Of a DNA stretch of 20,074 nucleotides, positions 4,938-18,118 are shown one piece after another; the first letter of the stretch is position 1; the number at the start of each line of letters is the position of its first letter. Under the pieces are notes generated by a model. It saw nothing but the letters and a program-made list of their open reading frames with translations. It made no database searches and had not been told where the DNA came from. The position numbers were made by a program, and so were the translations under genes. Location of the stretch: IMG/VR virus record IMGVR_UViG_2663763227_000012; one strand, 5' to 3'. Source of the stretch: a virus. Lineage: Duplodnaviria > Heunggongvirae > Uroviricota > Caudoviricetes.

Positions 4938-4995
4938 AAAAAGGGCGGCAGAGCAGTCACGGAGTAAAACTGATACCGCCAAACGTCACCAGAAA
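4938..4995 (-). ncRNA. dicF: DicF small regulatory RNA (ftsZ-targeting sRNA)
   Basis: Reverse complement of 4938-4995 reads TTTCTGGTGACGTTTGGCGGTATCAGTTTTACTCCGTGACTGCTCTGCCGCCCTTTTT, the DicF sequence with its terminal GC stem and U-tail. Lies between ydfC and dicB as in Qin. Confidence 0.85.
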
Positions 4996-6443: not shown

Positions 6444-6526
6444 AGTTAGCTAATGCTAAATCGTATTGACTATGTTTTTGTTAACATCTATCTTGTTAGT
6501 TATGACTAACAATAAAGGTGTTTTAA
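6444..6526. promoter_or_regulatory. Divergent dicA/dicC promoter-operator region
   Basis: 83-bp intergenic region with palindrome TTAGCTAA (6446-6453) and a perfect 8-bp inverted repeat TTGTTAGT-tatg-ACTAACAA (6493-6512), plus a TTGACT hexamer near 6469. Confidence 0.55.
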
Positions 6527-6757: not shown

Positions 6758-7262
6758 ACAGGCTCGTGAGGCTCTGGATGCCTGGATATGTCGACCAGGA
6801 ATGACACAGGAGCAGGCGACGATATTAATCACTGAAGCATTCTGGGCTTTGAAAGAGCGCCCGAACATCGATGTTCAGCGTGTCACATATGAAGGTGGCG
6901 CGATTGATCAGCGAGCGCTTGGCGTTAATCGAGTGAAGATATTTGAACGCTGGAAGGCTATCGACACCAGGGATAAGCGTGAAAAGTTCACGGCGCTAGT
7001 GCCTGCAATTATGGAGGCTATCCGGATTAATGATTTCAGGTTGTATCGTGAAATTACTGACGGAAAAAGCATCACGTGCATGATCGCCGGGTTAAACAAA
7101 GAATATGGCGATGTGGTGGAGTCCGGACTGCTTTTTGCTGATCCTGCCGTAGTGGATCGTGAAACTGACGAACTTATAGAAAAAGCAATTGCTTTCAAAC
7201 TTGCGTATCGACAGCAATACCAACAAAAAGCTGGATGGAATTATGAGCCTTCTTTTTGCTGA
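6741..7262 (+). CDS. YdaT-like early protein (CII-position regulator family)
   Basis: 173-aa ORF overlapping the dicC 3' end. The central segment (ERWKAIDTRDKREKFTALVPAIMEAI) resembles the conserved core of Rac YdaT as recalled. Confidence 0.6.
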   Translation: MKITPEQAREALDAWICRPGMTQEQATILITEAFWALKERPNIDVQRVTYEGGAIDQRALGVNRVKIFERWKAIDTRDKREKFTALVPAIMEAIRINDFRLYREITDGKSITCMIAGLNKEYGDVVESGLLFADPAVVDRETDELIEKAIAFKLAYRQQYQQKAGWNYEPSFC

Positions 7263-8208
7263 ACGCCCACTGGTTATAAACACGCAGCTGGCAATGAAAA
7301 TTGGCTTAAACGAAGCCATTGTTTTGCAACAACTGCACTACTGGTTGAGAGATACCAACTCCGGCATGGAATGTGATGGTGTTCGCTGGATTTATAACAC
7401 AACGGAACAATGGCTGGAACAGTTCCCATTCTGGTCAGAGTCAACGTTAAAGCGCGCGTTTGCAAGTCTGAAAACGCTGGGGCTTTTGCGTTGTGAAAAG
7501 CTCAATAAATCAAAGCGCGATATGACCAATTTCTACACGATCAACTATGGGAGCGAGCTTTTAGATGGTGGCAAATTGAGCGAATCCATCGGTTCAAAAT
7601 GCGCCGCTCCATCAGGTCAAAATGACACGATGGAAGAGGTCAAAATGAAACGCTCCATTGGTTCAAAACGACCCAATGTCATCGGGTCAAAATGGCCTGA
7701 TGATCTTACAGAGAATACAACAGAGATTACTACAGAGAATAAAAACACTTTTCGTCCGGAAGCTTCGCAACCGGACCCGCAGACGACTGAACAGGATTTT
7801 TTAACCCGGAACTCCGACGCGGTTGTGTTTAGTGCGAAAAAACGCCAGTGGGGTAGCAGGGAGGATTTGGCGTGTGCGCAGTGGATCTGGGGGCGGATCG
7901 TGGGTCTCTACGAACAGGCAGCCAGTGATGATGGCGAGATCATGCGACCAAAAGAGCCTAACTGGACTGCCTGGGCCAATGACGTGCGCACAATGCGGAT
8001 GCTGGATGGCAGAAGCCACAGACAAATTTGCGAAATGTTTGGTCGGGTTCAGCGAGATCCATTCTGGGTAAAAAACATCATGAGCCCGTCAAAGCTCCGC
8101 GAAAAATGGGACGAACTGGTCATCCGCCTGGGACGTTCACCTGTACAGCGTTGTGTTAATCATATTTCTGAACCGGATACAGAAATTCCGCCTGGTTTCA
8201 GAGGATAA
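7243..8208 (+). CDS. Phage replication initiator / replisome-organizer-like protein (O-like)
   Basis: ORF 7189..8208; I prefer the ATG at 7243 (MSLLFAERPLVINTQLAMKIGLNEAIVLQQLHYWLRD...), which gives a winged-helix-like N-terminal domain. Internal iteron array and position after the cro/cII-like genes support an initiator role. Confidence 0.6.
   Translation: MSLLFAERPLVINTQLAMKIGLNEAIVLQQLHYWLRDTNSGMECDGVRWIYNTTEQWLEQFPFWSESTLKRAFASLKTLGLLRCEKLNKSKRDMTNFYTINYGSELLDGGKLSESIGSKCAAPSGQNDTMEEVKMKRSIGSKRPNVIGSKWPDDLTENTTEITTENKNTFRPEASQPDPQTTEQDFLTRNSDAVVFSAKKRQWGSREDLACAQWIWGRIVGLYEQAASDDGEIMRPKEPNWTAWANDVRTMRMLDGRSHRQICEMFGRVQRDPFWVKNIMSPSKLREKWDELVIRLGRSPVQRCVNHISEPDTEIPPGFRG
7588..7694 (+). 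repeat. Five direct iteron-like repeats (consensus ~ATCGGGTCAAAATG) at ~23-bp spacing, candidate ori
   Basis: Copies at 7588-7601, 7611-7624, 7636-7647, 7657-7670 and 7681-7694 inside the initiator gene (seen as repeated IGSK in the protein). Confidence 0.55.
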
Positions 8209-8248: not shown

Positions 8249-8671
8249 GTGGCAAAAGTTTTTACACAAGAAGAGCGGGAAAAAATTAAATGGCAGGTGG
8301 TGGAACTCGTGCGCCAGAGCGGCCGTGAGACGTTACGGCAACTGGAAGCTAAAACAGGTGCGACTAGATATCTGATGAGCGTTCTTGCCAGAGAGCTGGT
8401 AGCCAGTGGCGATGTATACAACTCCGGCTACGGGTTATTCCCCTCTGAACAGGCGCGTAAGGACTGGCAAAACGCCCGCAAAAAACTCTCGAGGGCAAAG
8501 GTGAAGAAACCTGCTGTGGTTGATCCGGACCTTATCTGGTCATCACCTGACGGAGAAATACGTCGCTACGACAGTCGCCTAAACATAATCTGTCGCGAGT
8601 GCCGGAAGAGCGAAGTTATGCAGCGCATACTGGCTTTCTATCAGGGTAATTTTCAGGACGTGGCGCAGTGA
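8249..8671 (+). CDS. Hypothetical prophage protein, possible HTH
   Basis: 140-aa ORF with GTG start at 8249 preceded by GGGGG. Segment ETLRQLEAKTGATRYLMSVLARELV looks HTH-like. Stop overlaps the next gene's GTG start (GTGA at 8668-8671). Confidence 0.5.
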   Translation: MAKVFTQEEREKIKWQVVELVRQSGRETLRQLEAKTGATRYLMSVLARELVASGDVYNSGYGLFPSEQARKDWQNARKKLSRAKVKKPAVVDPDLIWSSPDGEIRRYDSRLNIICRECRKSEVMQRILAFYQGNFQDVAQ

Positions 8672-9024
8672 GTGCACCGGCAACCATTCTTGATATGTGC
8701 TGTGGCAGCCGCATGTTCTGGTTCGATAAGTCTGACGAACGGGCGATATTCAGCGATATCAGAAAAGAAGGATACACATTACGCAATGGGAGACGCTTGA
8801 TTATCAGCCCTGACATTATCGCAGATTTTCGTGCATTATCATTTGCAGACGCATCTTTTTCGATGGTTGTATTAGACCCTCCGCATCTTGAGAGTGTTGG
8901 TGATAACGCCTGGATGGGAAAGAAATATGGACGGCTGAATAAAGATGCCTGGCGTGATGATTCGCGACAGAGATTTAAAGAAGCCTTTCGGGTGTTGAGG
9001 CCGCACGGCGTTCTGATTTTTTAA
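8668..9024 (+). CDS. N6-adenine DNA methyltransferase-like protein, short and probably truncated
   Basis: 118 aa with SAM motif I-like DMCCGS and motif IV DPPH (VVLDPPHL), plus a RVLRPHGVLIF strand typical of class I MTases. Too short for a complete MTase fold; the frame stays open 30 codons past the TAA at 9022-9024. Confidence 0.55.
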   Translation: MSAPATILDMCCGSRMFWFDKSDERAIFSDIRKEGYTLRNGRRLIISPDIIADFRALSFADASFSMVVLDPPHLESVGDNAWMGKKYGRLNKDAWRDDSRQRFKEAFRVLRPHGVLIF

Positions 9025-10356: not shown

Positions 10357-10690
10357 ATACAGCGAACTCCATTGGTTTAGTTGGATATTTACTGTGCTGG
10401 ACAAAAACGGTTTGCGGGGAAATCTTAGTTAAGTAGAATGACTGCGGGTGCTTGAGGCTATCTGCCTCGGGCATGGACACCAACGGCAGATAGAGAAAAG
10501 CCCCAGTTAACATTACGCGTCCTGCAAGACGCTTAACATTAATCTGAGGCCAATTTCATGCTAGACACATGTAGGTTAGCCTCTTACGTGCCGAAAGGCA
10601 CGGAGAAGCAGGCTATTGTTAACACCAAGCTGTAATGTCCCCTTTGAACCATTCTAAAATGTCCCCAGACAATTCTCTGGGGGATTTTTC

Positions 10691-12004
10691 ATGATCAAAG
10701 AGACTGTTACGATGAGTCATAAGGAACTCCACCGACTTCAGATTATTCAGGAACAAGCTGCGGCACGCATTGGCATTTCTATTCGGCAGGTTAAACGTCT
10801 GGTGCAACGGTATAGAAATGAAGGGCCTTCTGGTCTGGTTTCCCACCGACGTGGAAAGCGTCCTAATAATTCCTTTTCTACTGAATTCAGAGCAACAGTA
10901 ATTTCACTCCTCAAAGGCCGTTACGCTGATTTTGGACCTACGTTTGCGTGCGAAAAATTGCGCGAGATACACGGTTTATCTTTATCCGTTGAAACTCTCA
11001 GAAAGTGGATGATAGAAGAGGGGTTATGGCGTGAACGCCGTCGTAAAATTGCCCGTATATATCAACGCCGCATGCGACGACCATCTTACGGTGAACTGAT
11101 CCAGATTGATGGCTCACCTCATGACTGGTTTGAAAATCGAGGCCCCAGATGTACACTGATCGTTTTCATTGATGATGCCACCAGTGCGTTGATGGCGTTG
11201 CGTTTTGTGCCTGCTGAAACAACCCGGGCTTACATGGAAACCCTCCGGGGTTACCTTAATGATCATGGCGTACCGCTCGCTCTCTACTCTGATAGACACA
11301 GTATATTCAGGGTAAATAACCCAGAGCGGGAAGGTGAGCTGACCCAGTTCACTCGTGCGATAAAGACACTGGGCATCGAGCCAATCCATGCCAACAGCCC
11401 GCAGGCAAAAGGGCGGGTAGAGCGCGCCAATCAGACACTACAGGACAGGCTGGTCAAAGAAATGCGGCTTCAGAATATCAGTGATATTGAAACAGCAAAT
11501 GCATGGTTGCCGACCTTTATTGAAGCCTATAACAACCGGTTCGCTACGTCGCCTCGTACTACTGATAATGCTCATCTTGATGTGCACCATTCTGAAGAGG
11601 AACTGGGTTATATCTTCAGCCTACAGGCGAAGCGCGTTCTGTCTAAAAATCTCACTTTCCAGTACAAAAGCAGTGCGTTTCAGGTACGCAGTGAGGGCCG
11701 GGGATATCGACTTAGGCATTCGGTTGTTACTGTATGCGAGAACTTTGACGGTGAAATTAACGTTCTGTATGACGGGAAAGCGCTGGGCTGGGAAAAGTAT
11801 GTTGATGGCCCGGAGCCTATACCACTGGATGATGAAAAGAGTGTCCATGAACGAGTGGATAATGCCCGTATTGATTTACGCTCAAAATACTATGTTAAAC
11901 CTAAAGCTGACCATCCCTGGCTTACGCGCCGAACGCAAAGTCATCAGCAAGTTAAGCCCCCGAAGTTACCTAAAAAGAAGCCTGATCCCGATAAAAAAGA
12001 TTGA
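10691..12004 (+). CDS. DDE transposase/integrase-core (rve) protein with N-terminal HTH, IS481/ISNCY-like
   Basis: 437-aa ORF: N-terminal HTH (IGISIRQVKRLVQRY), then an rve-type catalytic core (IQIDGSPHDW...TLIVFIDDATS...GRVERANQTLQD) and a basic C-terminal tail. Element boundaries not resolved. Confidence 0.8.
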   Translation: MIKETVTMSHKELHRLQIIQEQAAARIGISIRQVKRLVQRYRNEGPSGLVSHRRGKRPNNSFSTEFRATVISLLKGRYADFGPTFACEKLREIHGLSLSVETLRKWMIEEGLWRERRRKIARIYQRRMRRPSYGELIQIDGSPHDWFENRGPRCTLIVFIDDATSALMALRFVPAETTRAYMETLRGYLNDHGVPLALYSDRHSIFRVNNPEREGELTQFTRAIKTLGIEPIHANSPQAKGRVERANQTLQDRLVKEMRLQNISDIETANAWLPTFIEAYNNRFATSPRTTDNAHLDVHHSEEELGYIFSLQAKRVLSKNLTFQYKSSAFQVRSEGRGYRLRHSVVTVCENFDGEINVLYDGKALGWEKYVDGPEPIPLDDEKSVHERVDNARIDLRSKYYVKPKADHPWLTRRTQSHQQVKPPKLPKKKPDPDKKD

Positions 12005-17322: not shown

Positions 17323-17622
17323 AAAAATTCCTTAATACTTATAACTTGGCGCACTATACACACGTTCCTGAAGAAAGCTATAGTTTTTTGATGGGGTTGA
17401 AGATGGCTGGATGTCTAAAATAAACATTGCTTCATATGTTCAACTATGCGTTAATGATTGCGTCGGTTTGAAGAACAGACGATATACGAAGTAGTTTACT
17501 AAAGCAGTTCTCATTTCAGGTGTTATTCACTTATTCCTTCTTTGAGTCTCTCCAATTAAGTACGAAGTCGTTTCTGTTATGCAAACCATTTATGCCGAAA
17601 GGCTCAAGTTAAGGAATGTAGA

Positions 17623-17838
17623 ATGTCAAATAAAATGACTGGTTTAGTAAAATGGTTTAACGCTGATAAAGGTTTCGGCTTTATTTCTCCTGTTGATGGT
17701 AGTAAAGATGTGTTTGTGCATTTTTCTGCGATTCAGAATGATAATTATCGAACCTTATTTGAAGGTCAAAAGGTTACCTTCTCTATAGAGAGTGGTGCTA
17801 AAGGTCCTGCAGCAGCAAATGTCATCATTACTGATTAA
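17623..17838 (+). CDS. cspB: Cold-shock protein CspB
   Basis: 71-aa ORF ([71 protein letters not shown]) with RNP1/RNP2 motifs and a ~300-nt AT-rich upstream region typical of csp genes. Confidence 0.9.
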
Positions 17839-18118
17839 AATTCATCGCTCGTCTGTATACGATAACGAAGAAGGCTGATGCCTGAGTAGAGATACGGACA
17901 GAGTAGTGAATATTGGATCTCTTTAATAAAAAGTAAGGAGGTCCAATACATGAAACAATGGCTAGCATATTTGGCAAAATCTTAATCAGGAAAAGTATGC
18001 TAACCATTGTGGTGAAGTGCAGGTTTGCTGCATGAATAGTTTTACAGCAGAAGCTAACTGCTGGCATGGCAAAACAAAGTGCGTAAGTGGATGACTCCCA
18101 CAAAAAGCACCACAATCT

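Follow-up and report, generated by a model that had tools for sequence, protein, structure and literature searches.

Where in its genome does a Qin-type lambdoid prophage start replication when it encodes an O-like initiator and no helicase loader? The question is raised by a 20,074-nucleotide stretch of Caudoviricetes DNA (IMG/VR record IMGVR_UViG_2663763227_000012; "the window" is this stretch at its full length), in which an array of direct repeats, or iterons, lies inside an O-like replication initiator gene. An original prediction made from the letters alone had proposed this array as a candidate origin within the initiator coding sequence. Our computational analysis supports the origin reading: with a probability of about 0.82, positions 7564-7745, in the linker-encoding part of the initiator gene, are the replication origin of a Qin/mEp460-type lambdoid prophage. 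The prediction draws support from the position of the array in the linker, the unstable DNA beside it, a synonymous-site constraint that acts on the DNA itself, and the co-variation of the iterons with the N-terminal domain of the initiator. In kind this origin is ordinary, a lambdoid origin inside an initiator gene. The more interesting result is the adjacent array of 12-base-pair (bp) repeats (12-mers), with its codon-defying conservation across phyla, together with the near-universal 23-bp period of the iterons. The features of the locus are the following.

7243-8208, plus strand: O-like replication initiator gene (321 residues, ATG at 7243, PHROG 391), which contains the candidate origin
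7243-7563, plus strand: winged-helix-like N-terminal domain (residues ~10-105), presumed to bind the iterons (AlphaFold, PHROG, consensus, co-segregation with iteron type)
7564-7586, plus strand: iteron 0, decayed, GGTGGCAAATTG / GATGGTGGCAAATTGAGCGAATC (in 23-bp register with the array; clean copy in orthologues)
7587-7609, plus strand: iteron 1, CATCGGTTCAAAATGCGCCGCTC (repeat search, core scan, register)
7610-7632, plus strand: iteron 2, CATCAGGTCAAAATGACACGATG (dyad-symmetric arms; inverted-repeat pair with iteron 5)
7633-7655, plus strand: iteron 3, GAAGAGGTCAAAATGAAACGCTC (repeat search, core scan)
7656-7678, plus strand: iteron 4, CATTGGTTCAAAACGACCCAATG (arms match at 6 of 7 positions; centre TCAAAACG)
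7680-7702, plus strand: iteron 5, CATCGGGTCAAAATGGCCTGATG (arms match at 6 of 7 positions)
7702-7705, no strand: GATC at the junction of the last iteron and the 12-mer array (sequence)
7708-7743, plus strand: three 12-bp repeats, ACAGAGAATACA / ACAGAGATTACT / ACAGAGAATAAA, presumed unwinding and helicase-entry element (direct repeat; Tandem Repeats Finder period 12)
7741/7742, no strand: mosaic (recombination) joint between the origin plus N-terminal module and the C-terminal module (homology breakpoints)
7789-8130, plus strand: helical C-terminal domain, homologue of the lambda O C-terminal domain (BLASTP, PHROG 2357/277/2514, model helices 183-296)
8143-8205, plus strand: C-terminal tail ...VNHISEPDTEIPPGFRG, like the extreme C-terminus of Escherichia coli DnaT (phmmer, NCBIfam, family alignment)

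A repeat finder located five good 23-bp units at 7587-7702 with start-to-start spacings of 23, 23, 23 and 24 bp, and Tandem Repeats Finder gave the array a period of 23 and a score of 71. The core is GGTCAAAATG or GTTCAAAAYG. The end points first proposed, 7588-7694, were exact (ATCGGTTCAAAATG at 7588-7601 and ATCGGGTCAAAATG at 7681-7694), and so were the five good copies and the 23-bp period, but the conserved unit is about 23 bp long and not ~14 bp, a decayed sixth copy precedes the five and six is the family standard. Allowing one mismatch at most, the window contains GGTCAAAATG 7 times where 2.1 would be expected, and four of the 7 are in phase within 103 bp. One 9-mer (at most one mismatch) is found five times in 7520-7719, where the maximum in 500 dinucleotide-preserving shuffles was three, and this cluster is the strongest of its kind across the 20-kb window. 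The array as a product of chance is excluded. Iterons 2, 4 and 5 are partial palindromes of the form CATYRGG-N9-CCYRATG whose arms match at 5-6 of 7 positions, and the single strands of the array are more self-complementary than shuffles (z -3.3 to -3.7). Strong dyad symmetry of the array as a whole would be expected for sites that are bound by dimers. DnaA boxes were considered as a part of the origin and rejected: none was found in or near the array, and TTWTNCACA matches the window only once, at 8260, which is not in the array.

Orthologous initiator genes had been named as the place where the proposal could fail, and a comparison of repeat number among relatives had been suggested. The repeats were present in all orthologues examined, and in relatives at 68-78% protein identity the array consists of six clean units, against 5+1 here. 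The orthologues of phage mEp460_4F5 (78% identical), of another E. coli prophage, of Citrobacter and of a 43.7-kb circular phage genome have their six clean units spaced at 23, 23, 23, 23 and 24 bp, the counterpart of iteron 0 being a clean GA(A/G)GAGGTCAAAGTGAACGAATC. The spacing [23,23,23,(23),24], followed by 23 bp to the first 12-mer, is invariant throughout the family, and the five-copy form was found unchanged at many loci. The array of the window is a 5+1 version of the six-copy family standard.

The AT-rich unwinding element that had been expected just downstream, at about 7700-7760, was found at 7703-7745 and is the least stable DNA of the gene. The least stable 40-mers start at 7703-7714 (free energy, dG, -44.3 against a gene mean of -55.1, standard deviation 3.6), the segment has an AT content of 69% and a top strand that is 63% purine, and neither strand of the 12-mer segment folds as single-stranded DNA (ssDNA). 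The 12-mer segment is positionally equivalent to the AT-rich region of the lambda origin, and BLASTP pairs its LTENTTEITTENK with lambda's GDTKDTITKEKRK. The junction that leads into it, GATCTTACAGAG, in general form GATC(T/A)TACAGAG, recurs in several enterobacterial initiator families. Relatives carry Dam methylase genes just downstream of O, which together with the GATC at 7702-7705 suggests possible control of the origin by methylation or SeqA.

The gene itself was correctly called O-like: its product matches PHROG 391 ("replication initiation O-like") with E 1e-91, and coding sequences with identical ends are annotated in PhiR42_1 and in E. coli ATCC 8739, both 100% identical. We found no experimental characterization of this initiator family in the searchable literature. 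AlphaFold lays the protein out as an N-terminal helix/strand domain (~10-105), a structure-free stretch (110-175, predicted local distance difference test (pLDDT) score ~30) and a helical C-terminal domain (183-296). The five good units and the decayed one (7564-7702) encode residues 108-153, and iterons plus 12-mers encode residues 108-167, which is the linker. According to this model the array thus encodes a predicted disordered inter-domain linker. In the N-terminal domain the model gives, at low confidence, helices at 14-37 and 54-78 and strands at 42-51 and 82-100; PHROGs 6493, 428 and 11233 cover residues 2-170, and the domain agrees with a cross-phylum consensus, LxQxxYW...GxxWxY...W...S...RA...L..G. 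The C-terminal half is homologous to the P-interacting half of lambda O (residues 147-294 against lambda O 135-270, 34% identity over 148 residues, E 1e-26 by BLASTP), and PHROGs 2357, 277 and 2514 are common to the two proteins.

The extreme C-terminus has a different relative. Its last 21 residues, VQRCVNHISEPDTEIPPGFRG, align end-to-end with the C-terminus of DnaT (E 2.5e-4, phmmer against DnaT chains in the PDB) and match positions 160-179 of 179 in the NCBIfam DnaT model; when the whole protein was searched against solved structures, this 21-residue tail was all that matched. The tail is conserved in the family alignment and recurs in the initiator PHROGs 3729 and 18526. In DnaT, residues 154-179 are reported to add ssDNA affinity and cooperativity, both of which fall when they are removed (PMC4132743). 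The available part of a 2026 preprimosome paper does not address the DnaT tail. By its resemblance, the tail of the O-like protein is a possible motif for recruiting host machinery in an O-only module, that is, one with a single O-like gene and no helicase or loader.

Which part of the protein reads the iterons? Homology breakpoints place a joint within the gene. In Klebsiella phages the homology covers only the N-terminal domain, the iterons and the 12-mers and ends at query position 553 (window 7741), in other E. coli prophages it runs only from query position 554 (window 7742) onward, and in some Shiga toxin (Stx) phages it is limited to the 40 bp of the 12-mers. Families of the Pseudomonas type and of the Staphylococcus type have equivalent joints, located at their TE linker. 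The genes up- and downstream of O differ between relatives, while the iterons travel with the N-terminal domain: among 146 related loci, pairs with the same iteron share a closely related N-terminal domain in 86% of cases and a related C-terminal domain in 32%. This co-variation is the strongest computational support for the N-terminal domain reading the iterons. Work on hybrids of lambda with phi80 and phi82 reportedly assigned the N-terminal half of O to its cognate origin and the C-terminal half to helicase recruitment; as judged from the breakpoints, this picture would hold here, with the joint at the 12-mers.

Selection at the level of the DNA is apparent from the reading frames and from synonymous sites. 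The 23-bp period is not a multiple of three, so one DNA core is read in three frames, as SK in units 1, 4 and 5, as GQN in unit 2 and as VKM in unit 3, which argues for a function of the DNA and not of the peptide. Consequently, the repeat-encoded IGSK linker that had been proposed holds in part: there is a linker and IGSK is present in three of the five copies, but the other two copies read differently. When third codon positions were compared between the window and orthologues at ~70% protein identity, their identity was 0.80-0.83 in the iterons and 1.00 in the 12-mers, against 0.41-0.47 in the N-terminal and 0.30-0.41 in the C-terminal domain. The excess is significant for the iterons alone (Fisher P 3e-5) and for iterons and 12-mers together (7e-10), and indicates that the DNA itself is under selection.

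How the origin might fire can be modelled on lambda. A pR-like promoter lies upstream of dicC/cro at 6466-6494 on the plus strand (TTGACT-17-TATCTT, a consensus match only), and its transcript would traverse the ydaT-like cII gene, the O-like gene and the origin. Derepression would lead to transcription from this promoter, which would make the O-like protein and cross the origin. Dimers of the N-terminal winged-helix domain would bind the five (ancestrally six) partly palindromic iterons and build an O-some-like complex, whose stress could melt the adjacent element of three 12-bp CAGAGA repeats at 7708-7743, the least stable and structure-free part. The C-terminal lambda-O-like domain and the DnaT-like tail would then recruit the helicase system of the host to the opened strands. 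Recruitment of the host helicase is proposed because P, DnaC and helicase genes are all lacking from the phage, and we infer from the homologies that the C-terminal domain and tail may link the origin, once opened, with DnaB-DnaC or PriA-type loading machinery of the host.

Several points weigh against this reading. Initiator binding, unwinding, replication, helicase recruitment and origin firing are all steps that we infer. The N-terminal domain, like the whole protein, matches no Pfam family even at E 10; it has no similarity to lambda O residues 1-138 by BLASTP or by hhalign, a shallow profile comparison, the sole indirect link being PHROG 678, which both proteins match; and a profile search found no solved structure related to it. 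Its role in DNA binding is drawn from weak winged-helix matches in relatives and from the co-variation. The AlphaFold model is poor (mean pLDDT 55), which ruled out a fold search. Clear palindromy is limited to units 2, 4 and 5, the arms of units 1 and 3 matching at 4 of 7 and 2 of 7 positions. No P, DnaC-type or helicase gene follows O, and the 25 kb of annotation for the identical ATCC 8739 prophage contain none either; PMC12315714 calls the replication of O-only lambdoid phages (34 of 314) "not yet understood". In addition, an insertion sequence (IS) element and pseudogenes lie a few kb downstream, so that the prophage may not be inducible even with an intact origin.

These last points bear on whether the locus could be an origin by descent only, an inactive relic left in a Qin-type cryptic prophage that is decaying and no longer has its helicase loader. 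A prophage beside rspB in E. coli ATCC 8739 and the PhiR42_1 record from ECOR13 match the O-like gene and the DNA around it at 100% identity. In gene content the prophage of the window is a complete Qin-type lambdoid one, with int, xis, exo, dicB, the DicF RNA, ydfA-C and dicA (cI-like), then dicC (cro-like), a YdaT/cII-like gene, the O-like gene, a DUF977 gene and a short methyltransferase gene, and further on relBE, hokD, rem, ydfU, an antiterminator and cspF/B. Directly after O (8249-9024) come the DUF977 ("Ren-like") gene and the methyltransferase open reading frame (ORF), which is short (118 residues, matching positions 52-165 of a 229-position profile). A 437-residue ORF at 10691-12004 corresponds to a transposase of the ISNCY family whose copy in the identical ATCC 8739 prophage carries the annotation "partial", with frameshifted pseudogenes upstream of it. 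The prophage is partly decayed downstream of the replication module, and the short methylase ORF, the pseudogenes and the transposase all fit a relic, as do the decayed first iteron, the missing helicase or loader gene and the presence of a DnaC-like ATPase gene directly after O in a relative at 88% nucleotide identity (locus L006, 2525-3265). We nevertheless consider an inactive relic improbable. The O gene is intact and matches the one in the PhiR42_1 phage record at 100% identity, the five-copy array recurs unchanged at many loci, and O-only modules are a regular layout, found in 34 of 314 lambdoid phages (PMC12315714), in mEp460_4F5 and in the 43.7-kb circular molecule. The latter, NZ_CP081704.1, is described as a plasmid of E. 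coli AH02 and was assembled as a molecule separate from the chromosome. It is a lambdoid phage genome, O-only, with six iterons, a 78%-identical initiator and no plasmid replicon typed, and is consistent with a phage that replicates extrachromosomally.

Slightly less probable again, and on balance unlikely, is that the array serves another protein of the module (the cII/YdaT-like protein, DicA, DicC or the DUF977 protein), or is a pure titration or regulatory array, and is not a place where replication starts. Several DNA-binding regulators are encoded next door, and cloned lambda origins are known as titrating decoys (PMC4488673, PMC3349717). Against this, the type of iteron goes with the N-terminal domain encoded by its own gene, across the joint at 7741/7742 and with differing neighbours, the least stable DNA of the gene follows the array in phase, and the layout is that of experimentally defined lambdoid origins (PMC7466680). 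The weakest alternative, a duplicated IGSK peptide linker encoded by DNA without a function of its own, has very little left to recommend it: IGSK or SIGSK does occur three times in the translation and the region does encode a predicted disordered linker, but units 2 and 3 read SGQN and EVKM, so that the peptide is unrepeated where the DNA repeats, third-codon conservation is twice that of the folded domains, the spacing is fixed to the base pair family-wide, and a peptide repeat as the cause of the array is ruled out by the reading-frame and synonymous-site analyses.

With the replication origin as the preferred reading, is its 12-mer element a peculiarity of this prophage family? A blastn search with 53 bp gave matches in 100 phage records, and each of the matches listed lies inside a replication-initiator gene; the phages come from hosts such as Klebsiella, Erwinia, Pantoea, Acinetobacter, Pseudomonas, Burkholderia, Vibrio, Staphylococcus, Bacillus and Geobacillus. 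For the exact pattern CAGAGAHTACWWCAGAGAHTAC there are at least 120 matches in IMG/VR and at least 120 in GTDB species genomes, where by our own calculation fewer than one would be expected by chance in such collections. The GTDB matches include Nostoc, Chloroflexota, Gracilibacteria, Brevinema, Fibrobacteres, Campylobacter, Halanaerobium and many Bacillota and Pseudomonadota. Out of 240 matches listed, 210 are in an ORF of at least 200 residues, always in the frame T-E-x-T. The motif is central in the 191 complete ORFs among the matches listed (median relative position 0.51), and the GC content of the locus runs from 0.29 to 0.65 (120 IMG/VR loci among the matches listed). In 117 diverse representatives we found PHROG 428 in 94, PHROG 6493 in 89 and PHROG 270 in 78, all of them replication initiators. 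The N-terminal domain that the 12-mer initiators share is not covered by Pfam, and their C-terminal domains are of several kinds (Phg_2220_C, DnaB_2, DUF6017, the DnaT DNA-binding domain, DnaA_N). The loci selected with the pattern include carriers of the junction and 12-mer of the window itself (for example L026, L085 and L119).

For a test of codon choice, relatives were gathered with protein seeds and so independently of their codons. In the Staphylococcus-type family, Glu is encoded by GAG at 41 of 41 motif positions and at 23% in the remainder of the same genes. In the Pseudomonas-type family, Thr is ACA or ACT in 79% of motif codons against 26% in the remainder of the same genes, Ile is ATT in 93% against 25%, and Ser is TCA in 87% against 11%. 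The codon choice in the 12-mer runs counter to host usage. The profile of 291 units from outside the selection set is nCAGAGAnTAcw; these units were accepted only at 7 or more of 12 consensus positions, which biases the profile somewhat toward the consensus. Third codon positions are conserved equally with the others, the first base is variable, giving T, S, A or P, and the least conserved base is a second codon position, giving N, T or I. Such a pattern marks a constraint on DNA (or RNA) and not on a peptide. Translational pausing at the TE codons, with binding in cis of the nascent N-terminal domain, was also considered and found no support; conservation over phyla with different tRNA pools argues against it. 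Readings of the 12-mer as DnaA-trios, DnaA boxes, IHF sites or primase sites were judged by eye, and none was convincing. The trinucleotides CTG and CTA are repeated on opposite strands of the 12-mer, though to read anything of this kind into them would be speculation.

Iterons of some kind usually precede the 12-mers. At 195 non-redundant loci, three or more copies of some 9-mer were found in the 200 bp upstream of the 12-mers in 82%, against 10-17% for control segments taken from these genes; the repeated words vary from family to family and the dominant spacing is 23 bp. The protein of the window fits a layout which we call the "YW" winged-helix/TE-linker initiator class, a class defined in this analysis and not a curated family: an N-terminal LxQxxYW...WxY...RA domain, iterons of ~23 bp, two to five in-frame nCAGAGAnTAcw units (three here) and a variable C-terminal domain. 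Other N-terminal domains joined to the same C-terminal domains carry other repeated linkers where the TE repeat would be, such as three copies of NQVTS, or NNTSNN; examples are SPTNQVTSNQVTSNQGTNQ in Pseudomonas phages and ENNTSINNTSNNNIN or TTNNNSTNNDFTNND in Staphylococcus phages. This indicates that the 12-mer goes with one N-terminal superfamily, and by sequence comparison the alternative linkers suggest alternative unwinding elements that pair with other origin-binding domains. Nothing relevant on the 12-mer DNA, its peptides (TEITTE, TENTTE) or PPGFRG was found in the searchable literature, which is not proof that the 12-mer is undescribed. We offer only tentatively, at somewhat less than even odds, the wider proposal that nCAGAGAnTAcw in two to five copies is a previously undescribed, DNA-level part of a pan-bacterial class of phage origins. 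Such origins would combine a "YW" domain, family-specific iterons at a near-universal 23 bp, near-invariant 12-mers (for strand opening, helicase entry or contact of the initiator with ssDNA) and a swappable helicase-recruiting domain; the 12-mer would double as a recombination joint, and in O-only phages the DnaT-like tail would be the link to host helicase loading. The 12-mer is in any event a conserved DNA element, and the signature of 23-bp iterons followed by CAGAGA 12-mers could locate origins in thousands of uncharacterized phage and prophage genomes across phyla.

Among known systems, lambda ori is the closest in plan. In both, the iterons lie mid-gene in the initiator, in the inter-domain linker, an AT-rich, purine-skewed region is promoter-distal to them, the iterons are in part dyad-symmetric around an A-tract centre of the TCAAAACG type (lambda iteron TCCCTCAAAACGAGGGA), the C-terminal domains are homologous and the gene order is cI-cro-cII-O from a pR-like promoter. 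To the right of its AT tract, lambda even carries a single in-frame copy that resembles the 12-mer, TCAGAGAATTCT (S-E-N-S). The differences are in the parts. The window has five to six 23-bp units at a strict 23-bp period whereas lambda has four 18-bp units at 20, 24 and 23 bp; the iteron arms are GG..CC here and CCC..GGG in lambda; the unwinding element is a threefold 12-bp CAGAGA repeat here and an A-rich tract in lambda; and the tail is DnaT-like where lambda O has a C-terminus of its own. The lambdoid arrangement seen in the original prediction is right for the iterons inside the initiator, and the C-terminal domain is lambda O-like, but the module departs from lambda in having no P or other loader gene and no detectable similarity to the N-terminal domain of lambda O.

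The iteron-in-O layout of the lambda and Stx phage origins is established experimentally (PMC7466680). In 933W and P27, as here, six iterons, some of them weak, lie inside O and are followed by an AT-rich region, and their extra iterons are needed in vivo (PMC7466680); these phages have a lambda-type O with its iterons and a P partner, whereas the initiator of the window is of a different family and partnerless. The Stx1_14040-type O of Stx1/Stx2 phages (LC567819) carries GATCTTACAGAGAATACAACAGAGATTAC just after its iteron array, 97.5% identical over 40 bp and in the same frame, but its iterons are of the GGGAAA type, its N- and C-terminal domains are others (PHROG 270) and a helicase gene follows O. 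In gene content the module of the window matches the O-only modules of LLS and mEp460_4F5, which the available part of PMC12315714 describes by gene content, with no mention there of iterons or a replication origin.

An analogy can also be drawn with the basal unwinding system of bacterial oriC (DnaA boxes and DnaA-trios), in which likewise a periodic motif found across phyla adjoins duplex binding sites. The likeness is one of sequence layout alone, the motif being the 12-bp nCAGAGAnTAcw in the window and 3-nucleotide DnaA-trios in oriC. The iteron plasmids R6K, pSC101, F and P1 have tandem initiator-binding repeats of ~19-22 bp that lie outside rep, usually with DnaA boxes, unlike the array of the window, which is coding, inside the initiator gene and without a DnaA box. 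Titration or incompatibility caused by extra copies is a plausible parallel by analogy, and the mapped candidate origin opens the question of whether resident prophages hinder each other or incoming phages by titrating the initiator. It also delimits the fragment and the domains with which to ask how O-only phages start replication without a helicase loader of their own.

The initiator gene with its candidate origin is very common. About a third of complete E. coli genomes (1749 of 5426) contain 80% or more of the length of the gene, and it is also present at 97-100% identity in several phage records (PhiR42_1, HannyBb and mEp460_ev081). No known RNA family was found by Rfam in the origin region, all matches in the window being elsewhere. 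They are the DicF small RNA (4943-4994, minus strand), a sok-type antitoxin RNA (10446-10617, plus strand) and a cspA thermoregulator leader (17462-17854, plus strand), which are typical Qin cargo.

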